The notes: generated by a model not told the origin, from the sequence alone. Positions 17,183 through 58,406 are shown, counted from the stretch's first letter. The stretch is DNA of 64,000 bases from Minisyncoccota bacterium (GCA_028718635.1 JAQULK010000001.1:543834-607833); one strand, 5' to 3'. Program-made: numbers and translations.

Positions 17183-17216
17183 AGCGAGCCCTGCCTGCCG
17201 GCAGGCAGGGCTCGCT
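17183..17216. repeat. 34-nt perfect GC-rich palindrome AGCGAGCCCTGCCTGCCGGCAGGCAGGGCTCGCT (GGCAGGCAGG family)
   Basis: Read directly, intergenic between the Cys-rich gene stop and the murG start. Related copies at 31036, 41562, 53768 and 57932. Confidence 0.8.
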
Positions 17217-17222
17217 ACGGGA

Positions 17223-18974
17223 CTAGTATATTTCTTGCTGATAACACCTCTCACAATAAATAATTTCAGGACGTTCCGGAGCATAACTGGTCTCAAACTC
17301 TACAGGGCATTTACCTATATGGGTATGGGTAGTCTTTTCACACATGCAGGCTCTATGCCAAAGCTTTAAGGGATTCCTTTGTTTCAGTCTTTGGTAATGT
17401 CTGCAATTAGGACAGAGATGAGGTAAAGGTAGATTCATTCTTTGGTAGAATTGGAGTTCTGGAGCAATGATTTTGAAGGCTTCGGTGCATTGTTCATTGC
17501 ATTTGCCTTGATGTTCGCATTCTATGACTTTCCCTAGGATGGATTCATCTACGTCTTGGATGTTGTCCGGAATGTCTGTTGTTTTAATGTCTAGGGTATA
17601 GTTTCTTTCTTCTGCATCTTTCCATTGGTAACCTTGTTTTAAAGCTTCTTCTTTGGTTAAAGGAAAGTATTCTTGAGCGATGGTTTCGTTGTAACAGAAA
17701 GGGCTTAATTCTGTTGGAAAGAACTCTCCGTATTGGTAGATTCTGCCTTTGGTGTCTAGGTAGGGCATATCGTTCATGTGCTTGATGATTTTGGGGACTA
17801 GTTCTTCGTATTGTTCTTTGGTGTATTGGTGGTTGAGGATGCAGTAGGATTTGTTGCGGAGACCGACGCAGGCGAAGAGGTGGATAGATCCTGAACAATT
17901 TATAGAATAAGAAATATCACTACTGTCCTTTATAAAAAAACTAAATTTATAATCGGAATTTTCATTTGATTCAAAACCTAATGCAATAGTCTCATAGACT
18001 GATTCTGCTTTTGACATTCCATAATTGTCATAGCTATCTTTTACGCCAAGGACTGAATGTGTGGTGTATTTACTATTTTCAGAATCATTTCCCAATACAT
18101 CAAAACAATATTTACAATTTCTTGCATTCCTAATATTATTCCCTGTGCATTCTTTTGTATTAATTAAAAGAGAATGTCTGTGTATAGAATTAAGATATAA
18201 ATCTTTAAATTTATCTTTGTTTTTTTGCAAAGAATCATAACTACCTAAATTTAAATTCTGAATAGTTGCCAAATATTCTTCCCTCTTCATTTGTTTATTA
18301 AAAAAACAATATTGTTTATTCTTTAAATTAGTACATCCAAAACAGTTAGTGCAATTTTTACATTCGTATAAAAAATATGAATCAACGCAATTATCAGAAT
18401 TTTTACTAAAGAATAATCTGTTTGAATTCTCGCATTGAATATCCTCATAACAAAGTTCAAGTTTTTTAGAAATAGAAATGTCTAAGGAATCTTTCATGAA
18501 GGATGAGTTGCTGGAATATAAAACATTTTCATCGTTTTTACTTCCAAATAAGAGGTAACAATTTTTATTTTCAGCAGAAAAATTACAATAATCTGAATTT
18601 ACTGGATTAGTATTAAATAAACTCATTTGTGGAACTTTATTATATAAATCCTTTAGCTGAACGAAAAAATTTTTAGAAAAATCATAATCGCTTCCAAAAG
18701 AAAAAGGATCCCAAGAATCTCCCCACCAGCAATCCTGACAGAATACATTTATGGGACTTTCTTCTGCATAAATAGAAATAATAGTTTTTTTACAAAGATT
18801 GCATTTCCTTTTATACAAAGACCTTTCATTGCGAAAGTTCATCCTTTTGACCATCCGACATTCCGGACACCATGTAGGTGGAGGCACTTTTATTTTTTTA
18901 TAGAAATTAAAATCTTCCGGCTCGATTATGAAGTCTTTTTGACAATTTTGGCATACTTTAGTTTCCGAATCCAT
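17223..18974 (-). CDS. Cysteine-rich paralog family protein, copy 1 (583 aa), inserted between ftsW and murG
   Basis: Family signature: N-terminal CQNCKKDFxIEPEDFxFYxKIKVPPPTxCPECR, C-terminal LPLPxLCPNCRHYQRLKxRNPxKLWHRxCMCxK...CxVEFETSYAPxRPEIIYCExCYQQE(I/V)Y, and internal C-x2-C-x2-C-x2-C modules. Confidence 0.85.
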   Translation of the reverse strand: MDSETKVCQNCQKDFIIEPEDFNFYKKIKVPPPTWCPECRMVKRMNFRNERSLYKRKCNLCKKTIISIYAEESPINVFCQDCWWGDSWDPFSFGSDYDFSKNFFVQLKDLYNKVPQMSLFNTNPVNSDYCNFSAENKNCYLLFGSKNDENVLYSSNSSFMKDSLDISISKKLELCYEDIQCENSNRLFFSKNSDNCVDSYFLYECKNCTNCFGCTNLKNKQYCFFNKQMKREEYLATIQNLNLGSYDSLQKNKDKFKDLYLNSIHRHSLLINTKECTGNNIRNARNCKYCFDVLGNDSENSKYTTHSVLGVKDSYDNYGMSKAESVYETIALGFESNENSDYKFSFFIKDSSDISYSINCSGSIHLFACVGLRNKSYCILNHQYTKEQYEELVPKIIKHMNDMPYLDTKGRIYQYGEFFPTELSPFCYNETIAQEYFPLTKEEALKQGYQWKDAEERNYTLDIKTTDIPDNIQDVDESILGKVIECEHQGKCNEQCTEAFKIIAPELQFYQRMNLPLPHLCPNCRHYQRLKQRNPLKLWHRACMCEKTTHTHIGKCPVEFETSYAPERPEIIYCERCYQQEIY

Positions 18975-19000
18975 GGACTTAAAATTAATTATTTTTATGT

Positions 19001-20101
19001 TTAATTTTTGCGCTGAAATTTTGATATATTAAGCACTATGCCTATAGCCATCATATAAACCATAAGTGAAGTGCCTCCTTGGCTCATAAACACTAATGGA
19101 ACTCCTGTTAAGGGAAAAACCCCAACCACAGAAGCAATATGCATAAATGATTGCGCTGTAATTAGTATAACAATTCCATAAACTAAAAGTCCACTAAAAG
19201 CATCTGGGGAGCGATTGGCAATACGAAAACCCCGTAAAATAAAAAATAAATAAAGAATTATCGTAAAGACTGATCCGACAAAACCTAATTCTTCGCCCAA
19301 AACAGCAAAAATAGAATCCCCTTGCGGCTCAGGAAGATAACTGAATTTTTGAATGCTTTGACCGAATCCACGCCCTATAATACCGCCAGACCCTAAGGCG
19401 ATGAGAGATTGCTGGATTTGATAGGAAGATCCTTGCGCATCCTGCGATGGATTTATAAAAGTTTTTACCCGTTCCTGCAGATAAGGCGTAAAATATACAA
19501 GGGTTCCGAGTAGCAGTGTCGCCCCTAAAATCGTGCCTATAATATATTTAACAGGAACGCTTGAAATAAAAAGCATCGACACTCCGGTAACAGTAATCAA
19601 GATAAAGCTTTTTGTATCCGGCTGTTTTAATAGAACCACAGCAATGACTGCGAGCATCACTAAGAATGGCAAAATTCCAAATTTAAAATCCTTGACTCTG
19701 CTTTTCGCCCACGACAGCCAAGCGGCAAAATAAATCACAAAAGCAAATTTTAAAAATTCAACAGGTTGGAATTTTAGCAGGCCTAGGTCGATCCATCTTT
19801 CTGCCCCTCCATGACTCCACCCAAGTGCAGGAATAAAAACCGACGCAGTCAATAATATTGATCCCAGAAAAATTATTAAGGAAAATCTGCGCCAAAATTT
19901 ATAATTAATCTTAGAACAAAAGTACATGCCCAGAAAACCAATACCAAGACCTAAAACTAGTTGGCTAAAAAGCACTGAATAAAAAGTTTTTTCATTTCTT
20001 GCTAAAACTCCGAGCGATGCTGAAATAAACATAGCCACTCCCAGCGCTAATAAAATAAATGTAATTATAAGAAAAAATTTATCGGCCTTTTTTTCTTTCA
20101 T
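19001..20101 (-). CDS. ftsW: SEDS-family peptidoglycan glycosyltransferase FtsW/RodA
   Basis: 366 aa polytopic membrane protein with SEDS conserved regions (GxxxNGAxRW-like GGAERWIDLG, PEPQGDSIFAVLGEELG). Confidence 0.8.
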   Translation of the reverse strand: MKEKKADKFFLIITFILLALGVAMFISASLGVLARNEKTFYSVLFSQLVLGLGIGFLGMYFCSKINYKFWRRFSLIIFLGSILLTASVFIPALGWSHGGAERWIDLGLLKFQPVEFLKFAFVIYFAAWLSWAKSRVKDFKFGILPFLVMLAVIAVVLLKQPDTKSFILITVTGVSMLFISSVPVKYIIGTILGATLLLGTLVYFTPYLQERVKTFINPSQDAQGSSYQIQQSLIALGSGGIIGRGFGQSIQKFSYLPEPQGDSIFAVLGEELGFVGSVFTIILYLFFILRGFRIANRSPDAFSGLLVYGIVILITAQSFMHIASVVGVFPLTGVPLVFMSQGGTSLMVYMMAIGIVLNISKFQRKN

Positions 20102-20220: not shown

Positions 20221-20224
20221 TTCT

Positions 20225-22941: not shown

Positions 22942-24705
22942 TTAATAAACTTCCTGTTGATAGCACTTCTCACAATAAATTATTTCTGGTCTATCTGGTG
23001 CATAACTCGTCTCAAATTCTACTTCGCATTTTCCTGCTCCATGAAAATGATTTTGTTTATCACACATGCAGACTCTGTGCCAAAGTTTCATTGGATTTTT
23101 TTGTTTCATTCTTTGATAGTGCCTACAGTTCGGACACAACCTAGGTAAAGGCAAATTCATTCTTTTGTAAAATTGCAAATCTTCAGGAAGAATTCTGAAG
23201 GCGGTCATACAATCCTCCTCGCACCCTCCTTCATGCTCACAGCCTATCACTTCTTCTAAAATTGAGTCCTCGACTTGTAGAATACTGTCCGGAAGTTCGT
23301 TCGATTTTTTTGTAATTTTATAATCTCTTTTTTCACGATCTTTCCAATTATAACCACTTGCTAGAGCTTTTTCTTTATTCAGAGGAAAATATTCTTGCGC
23401 AGTAGTTTCATTATAGCCATATGGTGAAAATTCTACAGGAAAAAATTCACCGTATTTATATACTCTTTCTTTTTTATCCATATAAGGCATATCATTCATA
23501 TGTTTGATTATTTTAGGAACCAGTTCTTCGTATTCTTCTTTTGTGTATTGCTTGTTTAAGATGCAATATTCCTTCTTTTTTAAACCAACGCAAGCAAAAT
23601 TATTTTCTCCTCCGACAACCCTGATGCTATAATCTATATTTCTCGAACTACTCCAAACTCCCCAACTATGCTTAATATTATATGTACCATTTCCACACTG
23701 AAGACATTCATATACAAGCTCAATATTATCTCCATAATGAGTAAAATCATAAGTAGTTCGTACTGGTCCATTTGAAACAAAAGAGCAAAATTTTGAATCT
23801 TCTGTATTTATGACGCAAAAACATTCTTTGGCATTTTTGGAATGTACTATATAGTCACCAGTCACATTTGAATTTTGAACACCAAAATAATATTTTTTAG
23901 GAAATTTTTTCCAAAACTTCTTAGCTTTTTCTTTCAATGCACTTATATTTTTATAAGAATCCAATCCGAAAGATTTTAATTTTTCTTCGTATTCTTCTTT
24001 GGTGTATGGGGCATTCCAAATGTGATAACTTTTTTTATGGAGATTTACACAACCAAAACAATTATTGCATCCGCGAAGACTATAAGAAAAATATACTTCC
24101 ACGCAATCTTCACAATTTTGAGAGAAAAAAGTCCGATAACAATTTACACTAGTTACTGTTTCATAACTAAGTTCTACTCTATCTACCATAGTAATGTCCT
24201 GCGAATCTTTTGAGTGGAAAACTCCGCTTCCGTAAGATATGTCTTCGTCAAAGGTTCCATCATGAAGCAAGTAACAATTTTTCATATCATTTGCCATATT
24301 GCAATACTGAGAATTAATCATAGTCATACTTATTGCGAAAAGATTACCAATGGGAACTTTAAGAAAAAGTTCAAAAATTTGATCAAAAAATGGTCTGGAA
24401 AAATCAATATCCATTGCATAATCAGAAGCATTCCAATCATCTCCCCACCAGCATTTATCGCAATATATAGTATCTTTTTTATAATCTTTGCTATAAATAG
24501 AAATTATTTTCTTTTTACACAAACCGCATTCTCTATAATGAAGACTCTTTTCATTGCGCCATGCTAAACGTCTTTGTAATCTACACTCTGGACAAAAAGT
24601 CGGCACCGGCACTTTTATTTTTTCATAAAATCCAAAATCATTCGGTTCTATTGCAAAGTCTTTTTTGCAATTTTGGCATATTTTGTTTTCTTTTTTATGT
24701 TCCAT
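22942..24705 (-). CDS. Cysteine-rich paralog family protein, copy 2 (587 aa)
   Basis: Same N- and C-terminal family signature; tandem with copies 3 and 4. Confidence 0.85.
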   Translation of the reverse strand: MEHKKENKICQNCKKDFAIEPNDFGFYEKIKVPVPTFCPECRLQRRLAWRNEKSLHYRECGLCKKKIISIYSKDYKKDTIYCDKCWWGDDWNASDYAMDIDFSRPFFDQIFELFLKVPIGNLFAISMTMINSQYCNMANDMKNCYLLHDGTFDEDISYGSGVFHSKDSQDITMVDRVELSYETVTSVNCYRTFFSQNCEDCVEVYFSYSLRGCNNCFGCVNLHKKSYHIWNAPYTKEEYEEKLKSFGLDSYKNISALKEKAKKFWKKFPKKYYFGVQNSNVTGDYIVHSKNAKECFCVINTEDSKFCSFVSNGPVRTTYDFTHYGDNIELVYECLQCGNGTYNIKHSWGVWSSSRNIDYSIRVVGGENNFACVGLKKKEYCILNKQYTKEEYEELVPKIIKHMNDMPYMDKKERVYKYGEFFPVEFSPYGYNETTAQEYFPLNKEKALASGYNWKDREKRDYKITKKSNELPDSILQVEDSILEEVIGCEHEGGCEEDCMTAFRILPEDLQFYKRMNLPLPRLCPNCRHYQRMKQKNPMKLWHRVCMCDKQNHFHGAGKCEVEFETSYAPDRPEIIYCEKCYQQEVY

Positions 24706-24735: not shown

Positions 24736-26439
24736 TTAATACACTTCCTGTTGATAACATTTCTCGCAGTAAATAATCGGAGCGTAAGATTCATCATATA
24801 CTGTTTCAGCTTCTATATTGCATTTTGAACAAAAACGTTTTATTAATCTAAAAGGCGAACGTTTTGCTAAACGTCGCATATGCCTGATATAAAAACTCGC
24901 GTGTGGAAGAGGTAAATCCATTTTTCTATAAAATGAAAGTTCGTTCTCTGTTATTTTATATGCCCCTACAGATTTCGAATTATTTTTTTCTTCGCATTCT
25001 ATAATTTCCTTTAAAATTGAATCATCGGTTTCGCTAATGGTTTCAGGCAACTCTGAACTTTTAATCGTTGTTTTATAATTTTTTTCTTCTCTGTCCTTCC
25101 ATTTATACCCTTTTGCTAAAACCTCTTCTTTTGACAAAGGAAAGAAGTCTGCCGCTGCTGTCTCATTAAAAGCAAAATCAGAAAAAGAGTTTGGAAAATG
25201 TTCGCCAAATCGATACTCTAAACCTTGATCAAAATAAGGCATTTCTTTCATTTGTTTTATGATTTTTTCTTTCAGCACTTCATATTCCTCTTTATTATAC
25301 TTTTTATTCAAAATTGAGTACTCTCCTTTTTTTAAACCGACACATCCAAAACAATTCCGTGCCCCTGGACAGGAATTGCAATAATATAAATCCGAGGCTC
25401 CCATCCAACACTGAGTGCAAAAGTAAATTCTAGCGATATCTAGACCGCAGTTTTCTGATTCATATACTAGTTCAGCCTTATTCCCCCATTCAAAAAAATC
25501 CATGCAGTCTTCCAAGCCGAAAACCGAAAAAAGATACTTTCCATCTTTTACATTTACACAATCAAAAGATTGATGTACGTTTTTGCAGTTCGTAAACCAA
25601 TTGCCAGAAACATCACTAGATTTTATAGAAGCAACCGCTTTTTGAGGGAATTTTTTTCTAAATTCTTCAAATTTTCTATCCATTTCCTTAATGCCAGAAT
25701 AAGTGTTCAATTTAAGACCCTTTATCTTTTTAAAATATTCTTCTTTAGAATAAGCTTCGTTAAAAATATAAAATTCCTTATTATTCAAATTAACGCAACC
25801 TACACAATCAGAACAATTTCGGCAAGCATACAAAAACGAAGAATCCCTGCAATCATGGCTCTCCATACTAAACCTAAGGTTATAACAATTTCTGCAATTT
25901 ATACATTCATAACAAAGCTCGCTTTTGTCAGTCCAAGCGCAGTCGGAACAATCTCTTATGTTCTCGGCAATATAGCTATAAAAAGAATTTTCTGCATTGG
26001 TGGCTCTGAAAACCATATAGGAATTCCTTGGACTGGTAACACGATGAGTGTAAGGGCTATTGATCGCAAAACCCTGCCTGACAAGACTCATTCTCGGAAC
26101 CTTGTTTTGTAATTCCAAAAATTGTTCAAAGAATGGACGATTTTCGTCGTAATCCATTCCATATGAAGACGGATCCCATTTATCTGAATACCAAATATCT
26201 ATATCATAAACTGGAAATATCGTTTTCTCGGGATACATACTAAAAATTTCTTTGTTCGTAAAATCACATTTGCGCTTATAAAGAATAAGCTCATTGGTGC
26301 TCATTAGGCGTCTCATTAGCCTACACTGCGGGCAAAAAGTCGGTGGTGGTACTTTTATCTTTTCATAAAACCCAAAATCATCCGGCTCAATTACGAAATC
26401 TTTTTTACAATTTTGGCAAGTTTTAATTTCTTCTTTCAT
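24736..26439 (-). CDS. Cysteine-rich paralog family protein, copy 3 (567 aa, divergent C-terminus)
   Basis: N-terminal signature conserved (CQNCKKDFVIEPDDFGFYEKIKVPPPTFCPQCR); the C-terminus keeps ...SYAPIIYCEKCYQQEVY but lacks part of the CPNCRHYQR ribbon. Confidence 0.8.
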   Translation of the reverse strand: MKEEIKTCQNCKKDFVIEPDDFGFYEKIKVPPPTFCPQCRLMRRLMSTNELILYKRKCDFTNKEIFSMYPEKTIFPVYDIDIWYSDKWDPSSYGMDYDENRPFFEQFLELQNKVPRMSLVRQGFAINSPYTHRVTSPRNSYMVFRATNAENSFYSYIAENIRDCSDCAWTDKSELCYECINCRNCYNLRFSMESHDCRDSSFLYACRNCSDCVGCVNLNNKEFYIFNEAYSKEEYFKKIKGLKLNTYSGIKEMDRKFEEFRKKFPQKAVASIKSSDVSGNWFTNCKNVHQSFDCVNVKDGKYLFSVFGLEDCMDFFEWGNKAELVYESENCGLDIARIYFCTQCWMGASDLYYCNSCPGARNCFGCVGLKKGEYSILNKKYNKEEYEVLKEKIIKQMKEMPYFDQGLEYRFGEHFPNSFSDFAFNETAAADFFPLSKEEVLAKGYKWKDREEKNYKTTIKSSELPETISETDDSILKEIIECEEKNNSKSVGAYKITENELSFYRKMDLPLPHASFYIRHMRRLAKRSPFRLIKRFCSKCNIEAETVYDESYAPIIYCEKCYQQEVY

Positions 26440-26486: not shown

Positions 26487-28238
26487 TTAATACACTTCCT
26501 GCTGATAACATTTCTCGCAGTAAATTATTTCTGGCCTCTCTGGTGCATAGCTCGTCTCAAATTCGACATCGCACTTCTCTGTCCCATGAAAATGATTTTG
26601 TTTATCACACATGCAGACTCTGTGCCAAAGTCTCATGGGATTTCTGTATTTAAGCCTGCGTGCGTGTCTACAATTCAGACAAAGGTTCGGAAGCGGTAAA
26701 TTCATGCGTCGATAAAATTGCAACTCGGCTTGAATGATCTTAAATGCGCCAGTGCATTGATCATTGCAGTTGCCGTCATGTTCGCATTTTATGACTTCAT
26801 GTATAATATCATCCTGCACCTCTGAAATAGTATCGGGTAAATCGCTCACATTTTTTGTGATTTTATAATTTCTCTTTTCGGTTTCTCTCCACGAATATCC
26901 CAAAGCCAATGCTTGTTCTTTGGTCAATGGAAAGAATTCTTGAGCGGTGGTTTCATTGTAGGCAAAAGGACAAGTTTCTATCGGGAAAAATTCTCCATAT
27001 TTATATATCAGGCCTTGCTTGTCTGTGTAAGACATATCATTCATATGGTTTATAATTTGTTCTCTTAATTTAAAATATTCTTCTTTTTCATATTGCTTAT
27101 TGAAAATACAATATTGCTTTTTTCTTAAACCGACACAGCCGAAAATATCCTTTGAATTGACACAAAACATAGAATACTCCACATTTTGGCAATTTGTGAT
27201 TATCCAATGAGAGAATTTTATATTCGCGTTCTGGTCACCGCTTTGCAATGTCTCATACAATAGCGAGGATCCTTGGCCAAACGTGCTGTGGTCGTAAGCA
27301 TCGGTTAATTTTCCTGTTATAAAACTGCAAAATTTACTGTCTTCGATCTCAAAACCAATGAAGCAATTTTTTGCATTTTTTGTGTCGTTTAAATAATCGC
27401 CAGACGATCCGATATTTCGCCATCCATGATAAAATTTTTGAGGATAATTTTGCGACAAAGATTCGACTTTCTCTTGTGCTGTTTTTATCTTTTTTAATGA
27501 ACTTGGGTATAGTTCTGCTAATTTCTTATTATAATCTTCCTTGGAATACTGTTCATTAAAAATGCAATAACTTTTTTTATTTAAATTTATACAGCCGAAA
27601 CAATCATTGCACCCTGAGCAATTTTTAGAAAACATAACATTATGGCAACTATCGCAATCAATACTGAAAAATGTATTGTAGCATCGATTGCAATTCATAG
27701 TTTCATAGCAAAGCTCGCAATGGTTCGCCATTAAATTATCCACGCTGTCCTTGCTATGATTCACGAAACTACCATAAATCAAATTTTCTCCATAATCAGA
27801 ATAAGTAACCATGTATGAATTTTTTTGCCAAGCAGACATGTTGACGTATTCAGTATTAATCCAAGTCGAATACAATCCATATAAATTCATTATGGGAACT
27901 CTGTGATACAGATCATTTATTTGCGAAATTACATTCTGTTTTGGATTAAAATCAACTCCATAATCTATCGCGTCCCAGTCATCTCCCCACCAGCACGAAG
28001 TACAATAAACATGAATTCCAGAATCTTCTGCAAAGATAGCAATCGTCTTTTTATCGCATTTTTCACATATTCGATGATGGAAAGTTCTTTCGTTTCTTCG
28101 AGCCAGCCGACGTATCAAACGGCACTCAGGGCAAAAAGTCGGCAGTGGCACGTTCATTTTTTCATAAAATCCAAAATCATCTGGCTCAATCGTAAAGTCT
28201 TTTTTACAGTTTTGGCAAGTTTTAATTTCTTGATTCAT
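26487..28238 (-). CDS. Cysteine-rich paralog family protein, copy 4 (583 aa)
   Basis: Full family signature at both termini. Confidence 0.85.
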   Translation of the reverse strand: MNQEIKTCQNCKKDFTIEPDDFGFYEKMNVPLPTFCPECRLIRRLARRNERTFHHRICEKCDKKTIAIFAEDSGIHVYCTSCWWGDDWDAIDYGVDFNPKQNVISQINDLYHRVPIMNLYGLYSTWINTEYVNMSAWQKNSYMVTYSDYGENLIYGSFVNHSKDSVDNLMANHCELCYETMNCNRCYNTFFSIDCDSCHNVMFSKNCSGCNDCFGCINLNKKSYCIFNEQYSKEDYNKKLAELYPSSLKKIKTAQEKVESLSQNYPQKFYHGWRNIGSSGDYLNDTKNAKNCFIGFEIEDSKFCSFITGKLTDAYDHSTFGQGSSLLYETLQSGDQNANIKFSHWIITNCQNVEYSMFCVNSKDIFGCVGLRKKQYCIFNKQYEKEEYFKLREQIINHMNDMSYTDKQGLIYKYGEFFPIETCPFAYNETTAQEFFPLTKEQALALGYSWRETEKRNYKITKNVSDLPDTISEVQDDIIHEVIKCEHDGNCNDQCTGAFKIIQAELQFYRRMNLPLPNLCLNCRHARRLKYRNPMRLWHRVCMCDKQNHFHGTEKCDVEFETSYAPERPEIIYCEKCYQQEVY

Positions 28239-28261: not shown

Positions 28262-28813
28262 CTATGCTTCAGGCATTGCGGGCAGGTCTAAAGATTTTGC
28301 CGCAACACTGATGGAATTACTAACTTCATTATAATCTGGTAATTCTTCTACGGATTTTACTCCCATAAAAGATAATAATTCAAAGCTAGGTTTGTAAATA
28401 TATTTTCTACTGTCTTTTGCATCCGTCGTTTTATCCACCAATCCGCGAACAGACAAGGCTCTTAAAGTAAAACTAGAATTTACGCCTCTAATATAATCGA
28501 TCTCTGCCCTACTCACGCCATTTTTATAAAGAATAATAGAGAGAGTTTCCAGGCTAGCTTTGGAAAGTTCTTTATTGAGTTCCTCTTTTTGCAAATCTTC
28601 AATAATCCCGCTCAATTCTGGCGCAGTGCCGAGCATTATTTCATTTTCATTTTCGATCAGCGCTATTCCTCTTTCTTTCAAATTTTCTTTCAATTTTCCT
28701 ACAGCTTCATTTATTTCTAACTGTTCCACTTTTAAAATTTCAGCAAGTTTCTTGCGAGACATTGGTTCTTCTTTCCAAAATAATATCGCTTCAATTTTTT
28801 GTTCTATGTTCAT
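28262..28813 (-). CDS. scpB: Segregation and condensation protein B
   Basis: IEAILFWKEEPMSRKKLAEIL winged-helix N-terminus typical of ScpB. Confidence 0.75.
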   Translation of the reverse strand: MNIEQKIEAILFWKEEPMSRKKLAEILKVEQLEINEAVGKLKENLKERGIALIENENEIMLGTAPELSGIIEDLQKEELNKELSKASLETLSIILYKNGVSRAEIDYIRGVNSSFTLRALSVRGLVDKTTDAKDSRKYIYKPSFELLSFMGVKSVEELPDYNEVSNSISVAAKSLDLPAMPEA

Positions 28814-29592: not shown

Positions 29593-29713
29593 CACGTTAG
29601 AAGCAGATCGCGATCAACTCACGTTTCTGATATTTAAAGTTATTAATTTTTTTATTATTTATTTTCATATTAATATTTATTTTTAAATTGCGATCGCGGC
29701 TTCTAACGGGATC
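29588..29713. repeat. Type-A junction inverted-repeat element (arms CCATCACGTTAGAAGCAGATCGCGATC / GATCGCGGCTTCTAACGGGATCC)
   Basis: It spans the pepA stop region to the scpA start codon, with an AT-rich spacer between the arms. Confidence 0.6.
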
Positions 29714-47356: not shown

Positions 47357-49105
47357 CTAATACACCTCCCCCTGATAACATTTCTCACAATAAATAATTT
47401 CAGGACGTTCCGGAGCATAACTGGTCTCAAACTCTACAGGGCATTTACCTATATGGGTATGGGTAGTCTTTTCACACATGCAGGCTCTATGCCAAAGCTT
47501 TAAGGGATTCCTTTGTTTCAGTCTTTGGTAATGTCTGCAATTAGGACAGAGATGAGGTAAAGGTAGATTCATTCTTTGGTAGAATTGGAGTTCTGGAGCA
47601 ATGATTTTGAAGGCTTCGGTGCATTGTTCATTGCATTTGCCTTGATGTTCGCATTCTATGACTTTCCCTAGGATGGATTCATCTACGTCTTGGATGTTGT
47701 CCGGAATGTCTGTTGTTTTAATGTCTAGGGTATAGTTTCTTTCTTCTGCATCTTTCCATTGGTAACCTTGTTTTAAAGCTTCTTCTTTGGTTAAAGGAAA
47801 GTATTCTTGAGCGATGGTTTCGTTGTAACAGAAAGGGCTTAATTCTGTTGGAAAGAACTCTCCGTATTTATATACTCTACCCTTTGCATCAATGTAGGGC
47901 ATGTCGTTCATGTGCTGGATGATTTTGGGGACTAGTTCTTCGTATTGTTCTTTGGTGTATTGGTGGTTGAGGATGCAGTAGGATTTGTTGCGGAGGCCGA
48001 CGCAGCCAAATAAATTCGAGCAATTATAACAAATAACAGAATACTGCACATTTTGCGATTCTCTTATCTCGACTGAAAAATTTATTTTAGAAGAAGAAAC
48101 TCCTGCGGCAACACTTTCGTAAATAAGTTCACCACCTACTCCACAAGCAATCCCATCATACATATCTCGCACACCACCTCCTAGCCAAAAAGCAAATTTA
48201 CTATCTTCATTTTTTCCATCTACACAGTCAAAAATATATTTGCAGTTTTTGGCGTCTATAATATAGTCCCCGGTAGTGTTTTGCATGCGTACAAAAGAAG
48301 CAAATTTCTTCGGAAGTTTTAATTTTAAGTCTTCAAATTCTTTTTTGTTTTTAATCAAATTACTGTAATTACCTAATTTTAGCCTATCTATTTCTTTAAT
48401 ATAATCGTCTTTCGTATAGGCAATGTTAAAAACATGATACTGTTTATTTCGCAACCCAACACAACCGAAGCAATTTGAACAATTTTTGCAATCATACATT
48501 AAAAATGATTCCACGCAATTTGAACAATTTTCTCCAAAAAATAATTTATATGAATTTTGACAATTTATGTTTTCATAACAGAATTCGACTTTATCAGTAA
48601 AATAAATATCCACAGAATCTCTAGAACTAAAAGGACGATTACCATAAATAATATTTTCTCCCCATCCGCCACCAAAAGTTAAGTAACAGTTCTTGCTGTC
48701 ATCCATCCAATTTACATATTCACAATTTACATTGTTTTTATTGGTTAGATTGCTTCTGGGAACTTTTAGAAATAAATCATTGAACTGTTCGAAAAAAGTC
48801 TTGGAAAAATCATAATCTCTGCCAAAATCCATCGGTGACCAAGAATCTCCCCACCAATATTTTTGATCATACACTACTCCGCTGCCTGGTGAATAAGCAG
48901 AAAATATTTGTTCTTCGTGGCCTAAGGCATCACATTTTCTCTTATATAAAGTTCTCTCATTCCTAAAATTCATCCGTCTTACCATACGGCAAGACCAACA
49001 CCAGGTCGGGGCTGGAACCTTCATTTTTTTATAAAAACTAAAATCGTCAGAATCAATGGTGAAGTCTTTTTTACAGTTTTGACAGATTTTTGTTTGTGGC
49101 GCCAT
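47357..49105 (-). CDS. Cysteine-rich paralog family protein, copy 5 (582 aa), immediately downstream of dnaJ
   Basis: Full family signature. The C-terminal ~205 aa are virtually identical to copy 1. The start codon is 2 nt after the dnaJ stop. Confidence 0.85.
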   Translation of the reverse strand: MAPQTKICQNCKKDFTIDSDDFSFYKKMKVPAPTWCWSCRMVRRMNFRNERTLYKRKCDALGHEEQIFSAYSPGSGVVYDQKYWWGDSWSPMDFGRDYDFSKTFFEQFNDLFLKVPRSNLTNKNNVNCEYVNWMDDSKNCYLTFGGGWGENIIYGNRPFSSRDSVDIYFTDKVEFCYENINCQNSYKLFFGENCSNCVESFLMYDCKNCSNCFGCVGLRNKQYHVFNIAYTKDDYIKEIDRLKLGNYSNLIKNKKEFEDLKLKLPKKFASFVRMQNTTGDYIIDAKNCKYIFDCVDGKNEDSKFAFWLGGGVRDMYDGIACGVGGELIYESVAAGVSSSKINFSVEIRESQNVQYSVICYNCSNLFGCVGLRNKSYCILNHQYTKEQYEELVPKIIQHMNDMPYIDAKGRVYKYGEFFPTELSPFCYNETIAQEYFPLTKEEALKQGYQWKDAEERNYTLDIKTTDIPDNIQDVDESILGKVIECEHQGKCNEQCTEAFKIIAPELQFYQRMNLPLPHLCPNCRHYQRLKQRNPLKLWHRACMCEKTTHTHIGKCPVEFETSYAPERPEIIYCEKCYQGEVY

Positions 49106-51849: not shown

Positions 51850-53586
51850 TTAATATACCTCCTGCTGATAGCATTTTTCACAATACACTATCTCAGGCCG
51901 ATCTGGAGCATAACTCGTCTCAAATTCTACTTCGCATTTTTTAGTTCCGTGAGAATGATTGGTCTTGTCGCACATACACTGCCTGTGCCAAAGTTTTAAT
52001 GGATTAACTTTTTTAAATCTCTCCTGATGCCTGCACTCAAAACATTTTCTAGGCAATGGCAACTTAAATTTTTTCAAAAAAAGATATTCGTTTTGAATAA
52101 TTTTATAAGGTCTTTTGCAGGAAGCGCATTCAATAACTAAATTAATGATATCCTCCTCAGTATTATTGATATGATCTGGTAAATCCTTCGCTTCACAAGT
52201 AGCACTGTATTCTGGTTTGGCCTTCTCGATATAGTTGTAACCTTCATTTAAAATATTTTCCTTAGAAAATGGAAAATAATCTTGCGCAACGGTTTCATTA
52301 TAACCAAAAGGAGAAAGCTCTATTGGAAAATATTCACCATAAGAATATGAATTCCCCTTTTTATCAAAATAAGGCACCTTCGCCATCTGCTCAATAATCT
52401 GTAACCGTAATTCTTCAAATTTTTCTTTAGAATACTGTTTGTTAAAAATACAATAACTTTTATTTCGAAGACCTACACAACCAAAAATATTATTACAACC
52501 ATGACAATTAAAACAATATTCAGCATTTAAACACTCCCAAACTGTTAAGGTGAATAATTGTCTAGACCCATAAACCCCAGAATCCATAGCCTCATAAATC
52601 AATTCTGATTTTTCTCCCGTACCATAAGCGTCATAACTATCTTTTTCACCATTAACCGCGTTAATCACATATTTACAATCTTTCATATCATCTTGAATGG
52701 CAAAGCAATGATGACAATTTTTGGCATGAAAAATATCATCTCCAGAAACATCGACAGAATTTATAATGTTAGCAAATCTTCTGATGGTCTTTAATTTTAG
52801 CTTTTCAAATTCTTCGCTTACTTTTTTAAAATTTTCAAAATTTCCGAGATCTAATTCTTTAAGCTTTTTATCGTACTCTTCTTTGGTCAATTGAACATTC
52901 CACATACAATTAGACTTATTGCGGAGACCAGTGCAACCAAAACAATTTATGCAGTTTTTGCAATCGTAAAGAAAATATGAGCTAGTGCAAGAGTCTGCAT
53001 TATGAGAAAAAAAGGTTTCATAACATTTCAAGGAAGAAACATCTTCATAACAGAATTCGCAATCCTTTACTGTAAACATATCCATGCAATCTTTGCAGGA
53101 ATTGGCGCGCGAGGAATAAGAAATATTCTCGCCTATCCAAGATGCCGATACAAGAAAGGAATTTCTGAATTCGCCGATATAATTGCCATAGGAAGTATTG
53201 ACGCATCTTCCGATAAAAAGGTTTGGTTGAGGAGTTTTTTCCAACAACTCTCGAAATTGCTCAAAGAATAGCCTATTAAAATCATATTCTAAACCATAGT
53301 CCAAAGGATCCCACTCATCGCTCCACCAGATATCTCTCTCATAAATAGTAAATGGGGAATCCGATGAAAAACAACTGATCAGACTCTTGCCAGTTTTTGC
53401 GCATTTATTCCTGTGCAACGCACGTTCGTTTCGCCAAGCAAAACGCCTTTGCATTCGACAATCAGAACAAAAAGTAGGCGGTGGCACTTTTATTTTTTCG
53501 TAAAAATTAAAATCTTCTTGTTCTATCAGAAAATTTTGTTTACAATTTTGACAATTTTTTGTTTCTGCATTCATAAAATTTCTCAA
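51850..53586 (-). CDS. Cysteine-rich paralog family protein, copy 6 (578 aa), between the two ATPase paralogs
   Basis: Family signature at both termini (CQNCKQNFLIEQEDFNFYEKIKVPPPTFCSDCR ... CEVEFETSYAPDRPEIVYCEKCYQQEVY). Confidence 0.85.
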   Translation of the reverse strand: MRNFMNAETKNCQNCKQNFLIEQEDFNFYEKIKVPPPTFCSDCRMQRRFAWRNERALHRNKCAKTGKSLISCFSSDSPFTIYERDIWWSDEWDPLDYGLEYDFNRLFFEQFRELLEKTPQPNLFIGRCVNTSYGNYIGEFRNSFLVSASWIGENISYSSRANSCKDCMDMFTVKDCEFCYEDVSSLKCYETFFSHNADSCTSSYFLYDCKNCINCFGCTGLRNKSNCMWNVQLTKEEYDKKLKELDLGNFENFKKVSEEFEKLKLKTIRRFANIINSVDVSGDDIFHAKNCHHCFAIQDDMKDCKYVINAVNGEKDSYDAYGTGEKSELIYEAMDSGVYGSRQLFTLTVWECLNAEYCFNCHGCNNIFGCVGLRNKSYCIFNKQYSKEKFEELRLQIIEQMAKVPYFDKKGNSYSYGEYFPIELSPFGYNETVAQDYFPFSKENILNEGYNYIEKAKPEYSATCEAKDLPDHINNTEEDIINLVIECASCKRPYKIIQNEYLFLKKFKLPLPRKCFECRHQERFKKVNPLKLWHRQCMCDKTNHSHGTKKCEVEFETSYAPDRPEIVYCEKCYQQEVY

Positions 53587-53647: not shown

Positions 53648-55792
53648 CTATTCTAAAATTTTTCTTAAAACATCTTCTGGTACTTCCCTCGGCTGTAGCC
53701 CTCCTACGGGCGAAGCTGGTGTTTTTGGCTTTTGGGGAGTTTCTTCCCCTCCTTGTGAAGGAGGGGTGCCTGCCTGCCGGTCAGGCAGGGCTTCAGCCGG
53801 GGTGGTGATTTTTTTCGTAATCAAATCTTTTAATTTATTCATATTTTCCGGAGTAGCTGCGCGGTCAACACCTATTGGACTGACAGGCTTTTTTACTTCC
53901 CTCGGCTGTAGCCCGCCTATGGGCGAAGCTTGCATTTTATTTTTTAGAGAATCAAGTGAAATGGGAGTAGGTGTGGAAACAGGCGTTGGTGTGGATTTAG
54001 TTTCTTCTACTACTACTTTATTTAAAACTTCTCTTAATGCTGAATTGTCCCCATTTACTCGTTTCACAGGAGCTCCACTAATGCGAGCTGGATAAACGGG
54101 TTTGACTTTAACTGGAACTTTTTTAGTAAAAACTTTTTTTATAGACTTAAATACACTAGGCTTGCTTGCTAAAGCAATATCTTTTTCTCCTCTTTCTTGA
54201 TATCTATGTTCTTCTTCAACTCCTCCATTCTTTTGTTTAAATTCTATACCTAAATCAGCCAATGGTTTATAAAATTTAGATTCATCATACTTAATTTGAT
54301 CTTGCCCCCTTTTTTCCACCTTAACTTCTCCAGATTTTATTTTTGCTATACATTCCTTACAATAAACTGCTCGGCCTGGTTCAGGCTTGAAAGGTACCGT
54401 CTTTTCTAACTTACAAAGAGAACAAATTACGGGAAACTTTTCCAAATTTCCATTTCCGTTAGTGTCAGGATAATTGCCCAAGGACATTCCGCTCCAGTTA
54501 TTGATTTCTCTTTCCACTGCCTCGCGAGGCCTACAATAAAGATCCCGGGATGATTTTATTACCTCTTCTTCTATTTTTTTATTACCCGACTTTACTATCG
54601 GAGGCAAAGTCCTAGCGGAAAATGGACGGGAGGTCACGCCATCGATCATCAACTTCAGATAAATTTTATAGTTTGGCAAGTTTACAATATCAGAAGGAGT
54701 GAATTCTGGATCAAATTCTTTTTCTAAAAAGTCTGCATCGTCCGAGCCGACCCTAAAAACTATCATTGTGCCGACGTTACCAAAAACAGCATCACGCACC
54801 GCAGAACTCTTATCAGAAATAAGTTGCGCAGTGTACTGGTGCGCCACCGTCAAATTCAGCCTGTATTTTCTAGCTTCAGACAAAATACCCGCAAAAGCAT
54901 CCGTCACAAAGTTTTGGAATTCGTCGACATAAAGGTAAAAGTCTTTGCGGTATTCCTCAGGGATGCGCACTCGTTCCATCGCGGCTAGTTGAATCTTGGT
55001 AATGATCATTCCTCCTAATAGCCCGGAATTGTCTTCACCGATTCGTCCCTTGGAAACATTCACGAGAAAAATCTTCCCGTCATTCATAATGTCGAAAATG
55101 TTGATCGTACTTACAGATTGGCCGACGACATTGCGGATAATCGAGGTCGAAAGAAATTGCCCGACTTTGTTTTGAATCGGCGCGATGGCCTCATTTCTGA
55201 ATTTATCCTGCCAAGCTTCATACTCATGGACCCAGAAGGCTTTTATAACCGGATCTTTTAGATTAGAAATTATTTTCTGGCGGTAATCTTTGTCTACAAG
55301 CATTCGGGGAATTCCAAGCAGGGTCGTTCCCGGAGTATCGAGCAATGCCAAAATACAATTATTTAAAATATATTCCATTCGGGCACTCCAAGCGTTCGCC
55401 CAGATTTTCGTAAAAATACCCATGAGTCCGGACGCTACCAGATGCTTATATTGCGGATCAATTAATTCCAAAACATTAAAACCGATATGATAATCCGTGT
55501 CTGCCGGATTAAAATAAACTACATCTTTCATTCGCTCCGGCGGAATAGCAGAAAGGACGCCTTCGACGAGTTCTCCGTGCGGATCGACTACGCAGACTCC
55601 TTCGCCGTTCTGAATATTCTGAACTATCATATTAAACATCAAGGCAGATTTACCGGTACCGGACTTTCCGAGAATATAAACATGCTGACGCCTGTCCTTG
55701 CGTTTGATGCCAAAGAGTTGATTTTTGTCGCGAAAAGATGTGAGCCCAAGATAAGTAATATCTCTATTTTTTGGTATTTCTGGCAGTTCCAT
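53648..55792 (-). CDS. TraD/VirD4-like P-loop ATPase, paralog 2, with C-terminal zinc ribbon and Pro-rich repeat tail (714 aa)
   Basis: The N-terminal ~440 aa are homologous to paralog 1 (ILGKSGTGKS, LYVDEFQNFV, EARKYRLNLTVAHQY). This is followed by CSLCK...YCKECIAK and a tandem SPIGGLQPREV-containing tail. An in-frame GC palindrome lies at 53768-53791. Confidence 0.6.
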   Translation of the reverse strand: MELPEIPKNRDITYLGLTSFRDKNQLFGIKRKDRRQHVYILGKSGTGKSALMFNMIVQNIQNGEGVCVVDPHGELVEGVLSAIPPERMKDVVYFNPADTDYHIGFNVLELIDPQYKHLVASGLMGIFTKIWANAWSARMEYILNNCILALLDTPGTTLLGIPRMLVDKDYRQKIISNLKDPVIKAFWVHEYEAWQDKFRNEAIAPIQNKVGQFLSTSIIRNVVGQSVSTINIFDIMNDGKIFLVNVSKGRIGEDNSGLLGGMIITKIQLAAMERVRIPEEYRKDFYLYVDEFQNFVTDAFAGILSEARKYRLNLTVAHQYTAQLISDKSSAVRDAVFGNVGTMIVFRVGSDDADFLEKEFDPEFTPSDIVNLPNYKIYLKLMIDGVTSRPFSARTLPPIVKSGNKKIEEEVIKSSRDLYCRPREAVEREINNWSGMSLGNYPDTNGNGNLEKFPVICSLCKLEKTVPFKPEPGRAVYCKECIAKIKSGEVKVEKRGQDQIKYDESKFYKPLADLGIEFKQKNGGVEEEHRYQERGEKDIALASKPSVFKSIKKVFTKKVPVKVKPVYPARISGAPVKRVNGDNSALREVLNKVVVEETKSTPTPVSTPTPISLDSLKNKMQASPIGGLQPREVKKPVSPIGVDRAATPENMNKLKDLITKKITTPAEALPDRQAGTPPSQGGEETPQKPKTPASPVGGLQPREVPEDVLRKILE

Positions 55793-55851: not shown

Positions 55852-55854
55852 TAG

Positions 55855-57759
55855 TTACGCCTTAGGCTCTTCGCCTTCAGGACCTTTTTCTTTAAACTCA
55901 GCGTCTTTGACTTCGGCTGGTTGTTCTTCGGGAGTTCCAGCTGGAGGAGTTTCGGTCCCTGCCTTTGCCATTGCTTCTCCTATCTTAGACATTTCAGCAG
56001 AAAGTTCTTCAGTGGCTTTTTTGATCGCCTCTCCATCGGTGCCATCTTTCACCCCTCGCAACGCAGTTATCTTTGCATTCACTTCATCTTTTAATTCTGC
56101 AGGAATTTTTGCTTCATTGTCTTTGAGCGCTTTTTCTGCAGTGTAAATTATCATCTCTGCAGTGTTTTTCACTTCTGCATTTTCTTTCTTTTTCTTATCC
56201 TCTTCAGCATGAAGCTCTGCATCAGCTTGCATTTTCTTGATGTCTTCTTCCTTGAGCCCGGAACTGGCTTCGATTTTAATTGATTGAGTTTTTCCAGATG
56301 CTTTATCTTTTGCAGAAACGTTTAGGATTCCATTTACATCCACATCAAAAGCAACTTCAATCTGGGGCATGCCACGAGGAGCTGGTGGAACTCCATCTAA
56401 AATAAATCGGCCTAGAGATTTGTTGTCAGATGCCATCGGGCGTTCTCCTTGCACAATATGTATTTCTACAGAAGTTTGATTGTCAGCAGCAGTAGAAAAT
56501 GTTTGGGACTTACTCGAAGGAATAGTGGTATTTCTTTCAATTAATTTTGTAGCCACTCCTCCTAAAGTCTCAATCCCTAAGGATAGAGGAATCACATCCA
56601 GAAGCAACACATCACGAACATCCCCTTGCAACACGCCTGCTTGGACGGCTGCACCGAGCGCCACGACTTCATCAGGGTTAATAGACATATTTGGAACTTT
56701 GCCGAAAAGATTTTGTACTGCAGAAACTATGGCTGGCATTCTCGTCTGACCGCCCACCATGATAATTTCATTAATTTCATTCATCTTAAATGGAGAAGCG
56801 GAAAGAGCTCTTTTAGTAATTTCAATGGATCGATCTATGTATTCCTTAGCAAGAGATTCCAACATCGCACGAGACATCTTGAGCAATAAATGCTTTGGAC
56901 CAGAAGCATCAGAAGTAATAAAAGGAATATTTATTTCAGTTTCCGTAGTGGTAGAAAGTTCATGCTTAGCTTTTTCGGCAGCTTCTTTTAGTCTTTGGTG
57001 CGCCAGAGGATCTTTGATCACATCAATACCAGATTCTTTTTTATATTCTTCAGCTATCCACCCTATTATTTTTCTATCAATATCCCCTCCGCCCATATGG
57101 CTGTCTCCATCGGTGGATTTAACTTCAATAACGTCATCGCCTATTTCTAATACAGACACATCAAAAGTTCCTCCGCCGAAATCGTAAACAACTATCTTTT
57201 CATTTTTCTTTTTATTAAATCCATAAGCAAGCGCTGCAGCCGTTGGTTCGTTGATGATACGCTTTACATCGAGCCCAGCGATAGCTCCTGCATCTTTGGT
57301 CGCTTTTCTTTGGGCATCATTAAAATATGCTGGAACTGTTATTATAGCCTCAGTAATTTTTTCTCCTAACTTTGCTTCAACGTCGGCTTTTATTTTTTGT
57401 AGAATAATCGCGGAAATTTCTTCTGGTCGATAAAACTTATCTGCCATTTTTATTTTTACTCCGCCTCCATCTCCCGCTTCAATTTTAAATGAAGCTGTTT
57501 CGCGATCCTTTTGCACTTCTGGATCATCAAATCGATGTCCCATATAGCGTTTTATTTCAGCAATGGTGTTTTCTGGATTTGTAACCGCTTGTCTTTTTGC
57601 TAAAAGGCCGACGATGCGATCTCCATTTTTTGCAGTCGCTACGACAGAGGGTGTCGTACGATTGCCTTCTACATTCTCTATAATCTTCGGTGCACCGCCT
57701 TCAATGACAGCTACTGCCGAATTTGTTGTTCCTAAATCTATACCTATTATTTTTGACAT
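55855..57759 (-). CDS. dnaK: Chaperone DnaK (Hsp70)
   Basis: [35 protein letters not shown] Hsp70 signatures; 634 aa. Confidence 0.95.
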
Positions 57760-57857
57760 ATATTTTATAAGGTTAATTTATAATTTTTAATAATTTACTA
57801 ATATTTCGCGACCACTAAAAACTTGTATAAACAGAGTATATATGATAACATATATCC

Positions 57858-58406
57858 ATGTCAAGTTATTCAAGAAAAATACTTAAAAAACTAGCCGAAA
57901 GACCGGCAATTTCCGTGGAAGATTTAAAAGACCTGCCTGCCATGCCTACCGGCAGGCAGGCCGGCGAGGCAGGAAATGATACTAAAACAACCTATGCTAT
58001 TTCTCGCGCCTTAAAAAATTTAGTGGAAGGCAAATATGCAGAAATTCATGAATCCGGAAGGCAAGATTACGTAAAAATTACTCCTCTTGGAAAAAATAAA
58101 TTAAACACGTTGCTCTTGGAAAATGAGAGTGTGCTGGTCCCACAAAATTGGGATGGATTTTGGAGAATTATTTTGCTTGATCTTCCTGAAAGTAGAAAAA
58201 GTGAGCGCGAATCTTTACGCTACCTTTTAAAAAAAGCTGGCTTTGTCTGTCTAAAAAATTCTGCTTGGATTTCTCCCTTCCCTTTTGAACATTTGTTTGC
58301 GAACATAAAAAAAGATCTCGGGCTCACCACCGAGATAATGATCATCGTCACTGAAAATATAGACAACGAAAGTAAAAAAGTTTTATTTGAAAGTTTTGGA
58401 AAGTAG
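57858..58406 (+). CDS. PaaX-like winged-helix regulator family protein (182 aa), opposite strand within the chaperone/Cys-rich cluster
   Basis: C-terminal WDGFWRIILLDLPESRKSERESLRYLLKKAGFVCLKNSAWISP matches the PaaX-type C-terminal domain. The N-terminus carries an in-frame GC palindrome insertion (LPAMPTGRQAGEAGN). Confidence 0.45.
   Translation: MSSYSRKILKKLAERPAISVEDLKDLPAMPTGRQAGEAGNDTKTTYAISRALKNLVEGKYAEIHESGRQDYVKITPLGKNKLNTLLLENESVLVPQNWDGFWRIILLDLPESRKSERESLRYLLKKAGFVCLKNSAWISPFPFEHLFANIKKDLGLTTEIMIIVTENIDNESKKVLFESFGK

Follow-up and report, generated by a model that had tools for sequence, protein, structure and literature searches.

Several kinds of short palindromic repeat have been described that could serve as models for the element reported here. 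Repetitive extragenic palindromic (REP) sequences are extragenic and lineage-specific, occur in hundreds of copies with a conserved 5' GTAG, and have a cognate Y1 transposase gene (REP-associated tyrosine transposase, RAYT) that is usually itself REP-flanked. HIP1 (GCGATCGC) of cyanobacteria is an 8-mer palindrome that arises by substitution in existing sequence. Rickettsia palindromic elements (RPEs) are about 150 bp long and occur only in Rickettsia, in about ten families, every one of which codes for its own conserved peptide (PMC10969869). Mitochondrial GC clusters, together with repetitive hairpin-forming and double-hairpin elements, are found in yeast, sponges, placozoans and Allomyces (PMC7813641 and papers cited therein); they lie in spacers and in protein and tRNA/rRNA genes, their mobility is unexplained, and they are regarded as selfish DNA (PMC7813641). 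Here we describe a family of GC-rich palindromes from one 64-kb stretch of a Candidatus Pacebacteria/Paceibacterota genome (GCA_028718635.1), a member of the candidate phyla radiation (CPR; Patescibacteria); this whole stretch is called the window below. The basic unit of the family is a 20-bp perfect palindrome, (CCTG)2CC|GG(CAGG)2, and five copies were found, three of them within genes. The same 20-mer is present in at least ten bacterial phyla besides that of the host, and in phage contigs, and no described repeat family explains it. We put at roughly 60% the probability that the five copies are an ultra-short, non-autonomous, hairpin-forming selfish insertion spread by copy-and-paste, while our confidence in any particular mechanism of mobility is low.

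An earlier annotation made from the window sequence (the first-pass annotation) had called these copies the hallmark of RPEs, a comparison that holds only as analogy, the unit being about seven times shorter, read in three frames, and distributed over a wide range of hosts. Like RPEs, the palindromes lie in frame in housekeeping genes that have nothing to do with one another, in a host whose genome is reduced and AT-rich; they lengthen the protein by a few residues where this is tolerated, and some orthologs have them while others do not. Unlike RPEs, the units measure 18, 20, 21 and 24 nt, have no sequence relation to RPEs, and share an exact core common to many phyla; the family shows no fixed target duplication, linked gene or terminator tail. 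GC clusters and repetitive hairpin-forming elements are the closest functional analogues, by analogy and not by membership: these too are hairpins rich in GC that have spread through a compact, AT-rich genome, where they occupy spacers as well as genes for proteins and RNAs, and their presence varies even among close relatives, but they are organellar, lineage-specific and mostly longer, whereas the 20-mer occurs in free bacterial chromosomes and phage contigs across phyla. Miniature inverted-repeat transposable elements of bacteria (MITEs, such as Correia, ERIC and QMITE) are likewise non-autonomous and can lie in genes as in-frame fusions, but they span 50-500 bp and have terminal inverted repeats around a core, a fixed duplication and a parent insertion sequence; here the whole unit is the palindrome, with no core and none of these features. 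HIP1 shares with our family a very short GC-rich palindrome, over-representation in coding and non-coding DNA and the lack of a linked transposase, but the 20-nt block is inserted as new DNA. The family is probably best placed among short palindromic selfish repeats.

The window has a GC content of 36%, and its pepA and murG proteins are 100% identical to those of a Candidatus Pacebacteria metagenome-assembled genome, which identifies the host as a CPR bacterium. A scan of the window with the 20-mer CCTGCCTGCCGGCAGGCAGG, allowing up to three mismatches, returned two exact matches, at the two intergenic sites (Table 1), and two degenerate ones (41562-41581 and 57941-57960), while 0 of 100 dinucleotide-preserving shuffles of the window yielded a match. 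The half-site GGCAGGCAGG with up to one mismatch was found 12 times, where 1.19 matches would be expected, and each of the five loci is represented. The copies form one sequence family, as first annotated; on direct reading their coordinates and peptides were also as first annotated, and the reading frame is kept in pepA, the ATPase gene and the PaaX-like gene alike. Variants of the unit have 18 bp (with the center GC|GC), 21 bp (one added base) or 24 bp (one added CCTG), and the largest insert in the window, of 42 nt, consists of two nested copies.

The most surprising result is that this exact 20-bp palindrome is common to many phyla, cultured isolates and phage contigs, with near-zero counts for viral controls and no linked enzyme found. 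In a scan of one genome per GTDB species, where taxon labels are the depositors' record titles, the exact 20-mer was present in at least 120 genome stretches, a count made without a matched control. Among the matches listed were about 40 CPR genomes from many candidate phyla and about 35 Bacteroidota, including the cultured strains Winogradskyella echinorum KCTC 22026, Flagellimonas yonaguniensis 334s03, Longitalea luteola SYSU D00799, Flavivirga sp., Aquiflexum lacus, Agriterribacter humi and Aestuariivivens sediminis. Other carriers were Omnitrophota (one a single-cell genome), Planctomycetota, Nitrospirota, Bdellovibrionota, Elusimicrobia, Verrucomicrobia, Chloroflexi and metagenome-assembled genomes labelled proteobacterial. 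The 20-mer is therefore not peculiar to CPR-type genomes, a point that the first-pass annotation missed. In IMG/VR it was found in 35 viral stretches (about 45 copies), as against 0 and 1 stretches for two composition-matched control palindromes, one of which had the same tetranucleotide-repeat design; the 18-mer was found in 25 viral stretches, the control in this case being a 20-mer and not matched in length. None of the papers searched contained the 20-mer, its core or the 18-mer, and a keyword search for in-gene palindromes of this kind in CPR genomes returned nothing relevant. That many phyla and phage contigs share one exact 20-mer implies that it has spread horizontally or else that the mechanism is universal and does not depend on the host.

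Several features indicate that the palindrome itself is what is copied. The flanks of 163 non-redundant exact copies are mutually unrelated, so the unit is the palindrome alone, and it is translated as LPAGRQ, PACRQAG or CLPAGR in different hosts; since all three frames are used, the DNA is conserved and not the peptide. Exact 20-mers elsewhere lie mostly outside long open reading frames (ORFs), and most copies in relatives of the host lie inside ORFs. An asymmetric 18-mer with a T substitution, CCTGTCTGCGCAGGCAGG, was found at no fewer than five non-orthologous loci in both orientations, and a 21-mer with one added A is shared between pepA and the GrpE gene of another lineage (KGYMIGG[DLPAGKAG]RVIRP, compared with KGYKLGERVIRP in the window and in the related genome L240). 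The recurrence of both variants is a signature of copying from master sequences. Copies have also been inserted into copies, near the center, in the PaaX-like gene of the window and at four loci in other phyla (L018, L042, L021 and L028).

Orthologous sites that lack the palindrome are known for four of the five copies (pepA, the PaaX-like gene, the ATPase tail and the trpS/dnaB spacer), and comparison of filled with empty sites shows insertion into previously uninterrupted DNA at unrelated places. These places comprise a conserved motif in a promoter region, a beta-hairpin loop of pepA, variable segments of the PaaX-like regulator and of the ATPase tail, and the center of another copy. The host and flanking genes match the Pfam families Peptidase_M17, TrwB/TraG-type ATPase, PaaX_M, tRNA-synt_1b (trpS) and DnaB. 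As had been proposed, alignment of orthologs identified the extra peptides of pepA, the PaaX-like protein and the ATPase as lineage-specific insertions that are missing from most orthologs. The accompanying proposal that they occupy surface loops is supported for pepA, where the insert falls in a modelled loop of low confidence, while the copies in the ATPase and the PaaX-like protein could be placed only in poorly conserved segments of variable length.

The clearest case is pepA, an M17 aminopeptidase gene with a 21-nt in-frame insert. Most of 120 aligned protein orthologs and 80 DNA loci have the empty site AAG GA|A AAC; filled sites have the form GA[CCTGCCTGCCGGCAAGGCAGG]A, which is the 20-mer with an internal extra A (21 nt), and the window copy, GA[CATGCCTGCCGGCAAGGCAGG]A on the coding strand, differs from the 20-mer by this extra A and one substitution. 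The insertion converts KEN to RD-MPAGKAG-N. The seven residues (L/M)PAGKAG are present in 7 of the 120 orthologs, and the others read DEIVKE-NG; other lineages have the 18-nt form CCTGTCTGCGCAGGCAGG at the identical position (LSAQAG). A second pepA site (FIIMEY.G^GKK), empty in the window, holds 21- or 18-nt copies in other lineages. In a single-gene neighbor-joining tree, carriers of the insert at the first site are scattered, and each has insert-free sisters, including the two nearest to the window's pepA (P0002 and P0003, 88% identity). An AlphaFold2 model built from 56 orthologs, moderate overall (mean predicted local distance difference test score, pLDDT, 60) with a well-predicted N-terminal domain, places residues 34-40 in a loop of pLDDT below 50 between the strands 30-32 and 43-48.

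The PaaX-like gene carries the 42-nt insert, also in frame, which is made up of an outer 21-nt copy (CCTGCCTGCC...GGCGAGGCAGG) with a second 21-nt copy, (C)ATGCCTACCGGCAGGCAGG, at its center, and which converts KEN to KD-LPAMPTGRQAGEAG-N. Most orthologs are 168 aa long and have the empty site AAA GA|A AAT; one (P0137) has the 18-nt variant (LSAQAG) at the same position, and the identical nested 42-nt insert recurs in a 91%-identical protein on contigs from two independent metagenomes, one from ENA and one from JGI (L237 and L238). In the ATPase gene a 21-nt insert, CCTGCCTGACCGGCAGGCAGG on the coding strand, lies in frame in the C-terminal tail and consists of the 20-mer plus one internal A. 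Relative to the orthologs in L239 and L240 this tail has four extra blocks, ASPIGGLQPREV, LPDRQAG, TPPSQGGEE and ASPVGGLQPR, of which the second belongs to the 20-mer family.

Copies inside genes measure 18, 21 or 42 nt, all multiples of three, both in the window and across the 1.07 Mb examined from related genomes. The extra base of the 21-nt copies is internal, and its position differs (GGCA-A-GG in pepA, CCTG-A-CC in the ATPase gene). Either in-frame variants alone survive in genes, or in-frame subfamilies propagate; the latter gains support from sequence, because the 21-mer with the added A and the 18-mer with the T recur at unrelated loci. Three coding insertions in Paceibacteria, in pepA, the PaaX-like gene and GrpE, follow the GA of a GAA codon. 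Fold z-scores were -6.3 and -6.1 for the perfect intergenic copies and -2.4, -1.4 and -3.7 for the coding copies; that the former fold well and the latter have accumulated substitutions and lost complementarity fits insertion followed by neutral decay, and not maintenance of structure.

The intergenic copy in the trpS/dnaB spacer is the 20-mer with an extra CCTG on its left arm. About 40 related loci retain this gene junction, and in six of the relatives (L121, L124, L136, L152, L189 and L132) the spacer is free of the palindrome and reads TTGTCCACATTTTA(G/A)TAACAT. At this place the window reads TTGTCCA[24 nt]TTAGTAACAT and is longer by a net 20 nt. The insertion breaks a motif that is conserved among relatives. 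The copy at 17183 begins 7 nt past the stop codon of the ORF at its right, ends 34 nt before the start of murG, and folds as DNA with -23.5 kcal/mol; a longer, imperfect hairpin has this copy at its tip (Table 1). In two relatives (L241 and L243) ftsW directly adjoins murG, which places the copy at the 3' edge of an inserted gene, a 583-aa Cys-rich paralog whose 3' junction holds the palindrome. No clean empty site for this copy was seen among the relatives compared, and the outer hairpin AGCGAGCC...GGCTCGCT, taken as a family of its own, had no other member in 243 loci.

Table 1. Palindrome copies, their host genes and other features of the window. Positions count from the first letter of the window; features 1 to 5 are the copies of the 20-mer family.
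Feature	Position	Strand	Description
Copy 1	17183-17216		intergenic, 34-nt perfect palindrome AGCGAGCC-CTGCCTGCCGGCAGGCAG-GGCTCGCT, exact 20-mer core 17190-17209
Copy 2	41562-41585		divergent trpS/dnaB spacer, 24 nt, CCTGCCTGCCTGCCGGCAGGCAGG; exact 20-mer 41566-41585
Copy 3	31036-31056	-	pepA, CCTGCCTTGCCGGCAGGCATG, peptide ...DMPAGKAGNG...
Copy 4	53769-53789	-	TraG/VirD4-like ATPase, CCTGCCTGCCGGTCAGGCAGG, peptide ...LPDRQAGTP...
Copy 5	57932-57973	+	PaaX-like gene, peptide ...LPAMPTGRQAGEAGN...
Hairpin around copy 1	~17171-17222		imperfect, TCCCGTAGCGAGCC...GGCTCGCTCTGCTACAGGGA (murG orientation)
pepA	29703-31151	-	M17 aminopeptidase
ATPase gene	53648-55792	-	TraG/VirD4-like
PaaX-like gene	57858-58406	+	regulator
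ORF between ftsW and murG	17223-18974	-	Cys-rich protein, 583 aa
Other Cys-rich paralogs	22942-24705, 24736-26439, 26487-28238, 47357-49105, 51850-53586, 58457-60184, 60231-62030, 61976-63649		~560-600 aa
Conserved motif upstream of dnaB	41555-41563		TTGTCCACA
Inverted-repeat element	41457-41552		96 nt, 14-nt perfect arms AAAAGCAGATTATG / CATAATCTGCTTTT, RNA fold -33 kcal/mol
topA	4138-6417	+	
Second hairpin family, topA copy	5308-5354		47-nt perfect palindrome, 22-bp stem, RNA fold -42 kcal/mol, read in frame as NSDVGRPVSGRPTSEL
Second hairpin family, intergenic copy	58413-58452		between PaaX-like gene and following ORF
Third hairpin family	53746-53766		ATPase tail, CCCCTCCTTnnnAAGGAGGGG, read as TPPSQGG
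Fourth insert family	53888-53932, 53675-53722		ATPase tail, ASP(I/V)GGLQPREV
ScpB C-terminus	28262-28300		...LDLPAMPEA
CysS C-terminus	46700-46741		...LGHRPTGEAKI
tRNA-Leu(CAA)	9657-9741		
LAGLIDADG ORF	9685-10317		homing-endonuclease domain

Clues to how the palindrome enters DNA come from the sequence around the exact copies. The same base stands on both sides of the element in 55 of 163 copies, compared with 33 expected, and abutting repeats of 7 or 14 nt occur at only five copies. The adjoining base is A in 41% and T in 9% of cases against a background of 28%, with T avoided at position -1, and among preceding dinucleotides there is an excess of GA, AA, CG and TC and a deficit of AT, AC, CT and GT. 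Stems of at least 6 bp flank 12% of copies, compared with 2.9% of control positions, and in 13 of the 22 stem-flanked copies the stem abuts the palindrome on one side. Direct repeats of at least 7 nt within 25 nt on either side are threefold commoner than at control positions, and several copies lie within heptamer tandem arrays. About ten copies sit in tRNA-like sequence, mostly in the D-loop. No protein family recurs at more than four loci within 2 kb of 160 copies, and no transposase gene was found in the 64-kb window. Taken together, these features suggest that the element is non-autonomous and that DNA structure guides where it inserts.

The tRNA-like sites, in other phyla and in viral contigs (L030 3628, L083 4416, L106 3709, L037 2127, L015 4041, L099 5992, L085 67, L232 515 and L202/L225), place the palindrome in an incomplete 5' tRNA copy just upstream of an intact tRNA gene, within its D-loop or else its variable or anticodon region; a GIY-YIG-like ORF separates this copy from the intact gene in L106. 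The idea that the palindrome is a tRNA intron was rejected, as in-silico excision of the 20-mer produced no ARAGORN tRNA across the junction and the matches are 5' pseudo-fragments upstream of intact tRNAs. Nor was support found for a 1-nt target duplication that would make each insertion 21 nt, given that the extra base is internal and variously placed in pepA and the ATPase gene and that the flank pairs are mixed. In the viral contig richest in copies (IMGVR_UViG_3300037242_000417; L221, L228 and L229), whose 29.5 kb are 60% GC and hold six or more exact copies, these are embedded in larger repeats of two families (GTAG[P]GGGCGGCACAATCTAGCCCAGGGCGGAAGCCCTGGGTA is an example); inspection of this contig and of L207 by eye, with no family search run, showed no transposase- or nuclease-like gene.

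On the reading we favor, that of a selfish insertion and not a functional signal, new copies would be gained by copy-and-paste from existing ones in a structure-directed reaction on single-stranded DNA or at stalled forks. The candidate catalysts are a trans-acting enzyme of the HUH/Y1 type, or the polymerase itself, switching template onto another copy at the stall site. Within genes, selection would keep only in-frame copies at tolerant positions, and these would then decay by point mutation. Loss would occur through precise deletion promoted by the hairpin, in pepA perhaps between the short GA repeats flanking the copy, and such deletion would explain the patchy distribution among orthologs and the clean losses. 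A more far-reaching version, to which we give only tentative credence, holds that the 20-bp palindrome is the smallest mobile DNA yet described, a bare hairpin with no terminal repeats, target duplication or dedicated enzyme, spreading across phyla, possibly via phages, in a structure-directed manner that would use hairpin loops, palindrome centers or tRNA-like D-loops on single-stranded DNA, or template switching at stalled forks, and seeding surface loops in essential proteins of CPR and other bacteria.

A number of observations weigh against the favored reading. No mobilizing enzyme or mechanism was identified, the 163 exact copies show no fixed target duplication, and the flank preferences are only weak. 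The density of the family is low, at about 22 matches in 1.07 Mb of related genomes. The 21-nt pepA copies of several lineages share the same internal extra A, and repeated insertion at the same site explains the pattern in this gene no better than would recombination, or a single old insertion that was later lost many times. Arms built of tetranucleotide repeats could in principle arise or grow by slippage, and the identity of the 20-mer across phyla is hard to reconcile with any known transposition system. The control palindromes, moreover, were counted on viral contigs only.

The palindrome could instead be a REP-like element moved in trans by a RAYT (of the IS200/IS605 Y1 HUH family) whose gene lies at another place in each genome. 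This is a special case of the mobile-element reading, in itself unlikely, in which an enzyme recognizes the hairpin and insertion into single-stranded DNA leaves no duplication. The copies resemble REPs and REPINs (20-40 nt) in being short GC-rich palindromes of 18-34 nt that form a stable hairpin, are non-autonomous and lack target duplications, as does IS200/IS605 insertion in general, and copy 1 has GTAG before it and CTAC after it. GTAG is absent from the other four copies, however, three of the five are intragenic, neither the window nor the 2 kb around each of 160 copies yielded a RAYT or other Y1 gene, and REPs are normally lineage-specific whereas the 20-mer is identical across phyla. 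A related Paceibacteria genome (L240) does contain a hairpin-flanked Y1_Tnp gene (18219-18863), but this IS200-like gene (214 aa; 18212-18911 with the hairpins on both sides) was rejected as the mobilizer, its hairpin ACAAGGGTWACCCTTGT being unrelated to the 20-mer and found nowhere else in the DNA examined. Recurrent de novo origin, in which CCTG/CAGG runs are made palindromic and lengthened by slippage and quasi-palindrome template switching to give independent products, seems to us slightly less likely again. It would account for arms of two to three tetranucleotide units, for their variable length (the extra CCTG at 41562; extended arms in L018 and L042), for the differing centers of the 18-, 20- and 21-nt forms, for the lack of a linked enzyme and for the presence of the sequence in unrelated phyla, but the empty sites AAAGAAAAC, AAAGAAAAT and TTGTCCACATTTTAG contain no CCTG/CAGG seed and the whole block appears at once, the analogous palindrome (CCGT)2CC|GG(ACGG)2 was found in 0 viral stretches against 35 for the 20-mer, and asymmetric subfamily variants recur at unrelated loci.

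Selection for a function is improbable, whether as a terminator, an RNA-stability or protein-binding signal in spacers, or a Pro/Gly/Ala linker in proteins. Neither intergenic copy is followed by a T-run or has a terminator-like site in a terminator scan, and an Rfam scan of the whole window matched one tRNA-Leu only and no palindrome. In favor of a function are the position of copy 1 just past a stop codon, that of copy 2 in a promoter region, and the very stable folding of the perfect copies. A pepA copy with CATG on both arms (L177) is a possible compensatory pair, but complementarity is lost in the coding copies, most orthologs, including the nearest, lack the inserts, the peptide varies with the reading frame, and copy 2 disrupts a motif conserved in relatives. 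True homology with the RPE families is highly improbable: palindromic structure, in-frame location in housekeeping genes and a reduced AT-rich host are shared, but the RPEs form defined families of about 150 bp with a conserved peptide (PMC10969869), against 18-24 bp in three frames here, and the 20-mer extends to CPR, Bacteroidota and many other phyla. We give just as little weight to an artefact of sequencing, assembly or adapters. A perfect palindrome in many metagenome assemblies could hint at a synthetic oligonucleotide, but flanks are continuous across the insert and reading frames intact, orthologs have inherited copies that have since diverged, ENA and JGI samples share one nested insert, and further copies come from cultured isolates, a single-cell genome and complete chromosomes.

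If the element is mobile, it would set a new lower size limit for selfish DNA and point to an insertion route that needs only a hairpin, and which may be universal because the same 20 bases recur in ten or more phyla and in phage contigs. The results show that hairpin insertions make proteins of the ultra-small CPR bacteria gain and lose loops, with at least four hairpin families doing so in this one window. Such insertions are a source of protein length variation that can mislead gene callers, alignments and phylogenies; as marks of recent insertions and deletions the hairpins could serve for strain tracking, and they may stall polymerases in sequencing. Exact copies in cultured Bacteroidota bring the mechanism within experimental reach.

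Three or more further GC-rich hairpin families, missed by the first-pass annotation, have in-frame inserts elsewhere in the window, within topA and within the tail of the ATPase. One, built on GACGTTGGACGTC / GACGTCCAACGTC, has a copy in topA, in a variable loop that is missing from the nearest TopA representatives, and an intergenic copy (Table 1). Another, CCCCTCCTTnnnAAGGAGGGG, whose arms resemble an anti-Shine-Dalgarno/Shine-Dalgarno pair, adjoins the LPDRQAG copy in the ATPase tail; in other lineages it occupies the position of the 20-mer family in the PaaX-like gene (P0142, P0146, P0149, P0153 and others), reading PLLHKEG or TPPSQGE, which makes this position a hotspot for several hairpin families. 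The fourth insert family is encoded twice in the ATPase tail, and both copies are missing from L239 and L240; akin to it are ASPIGLRPR blocks at other pepA sites (P0004, P0042 and P0061), in relatives that also have GSTSSPQV and PARNA..S.AGG blocks. The C-termini of ScpB and CysS are encoded by GC-rich, partly self-complementary DNA and may be decayed hairpin inserts. A Saccharibacteria genome (L053) has the exact 20-mer in ScpB (LPAGRQG), at a position different from that of the window segment.

Other inverted repeats were seen beside the intergenic copies. The 96-nt element next to copy 2 is missing from the trpS/dnaB spacers of relatives. The motif TTGTCCACA, conserved upstream of dnaB in relatives, has its last base altered by the palindrome insertion; it matches the DnaA-box consensus, TTATNCACA. 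In the relative L242 the ftsW-murG spacer (~3880-4000) contains a different inverted-repeat element of about 118 nt, whose termini, TCCCGTTAGAAGC, resemble the outer arms TCCCGTAGCGAGCC of the hairpin around copy 1. The Cys-rich protein of the ORF beside copy 1 is one of nine paralogs in the window; the two that were scanned (17223-18974 and 58457-60184) had no Pfam match, and 17238-17871 is 97.5% identical to 47372-48005 over 634 nt, indicating recent duplication or gene conversion. The sole tRNA gene of the window, tRNA-Leu(CAA), is overlapped in its 3' part, and then followed, by an ORF with a LAGLIDADG homing-endonuclease domain.

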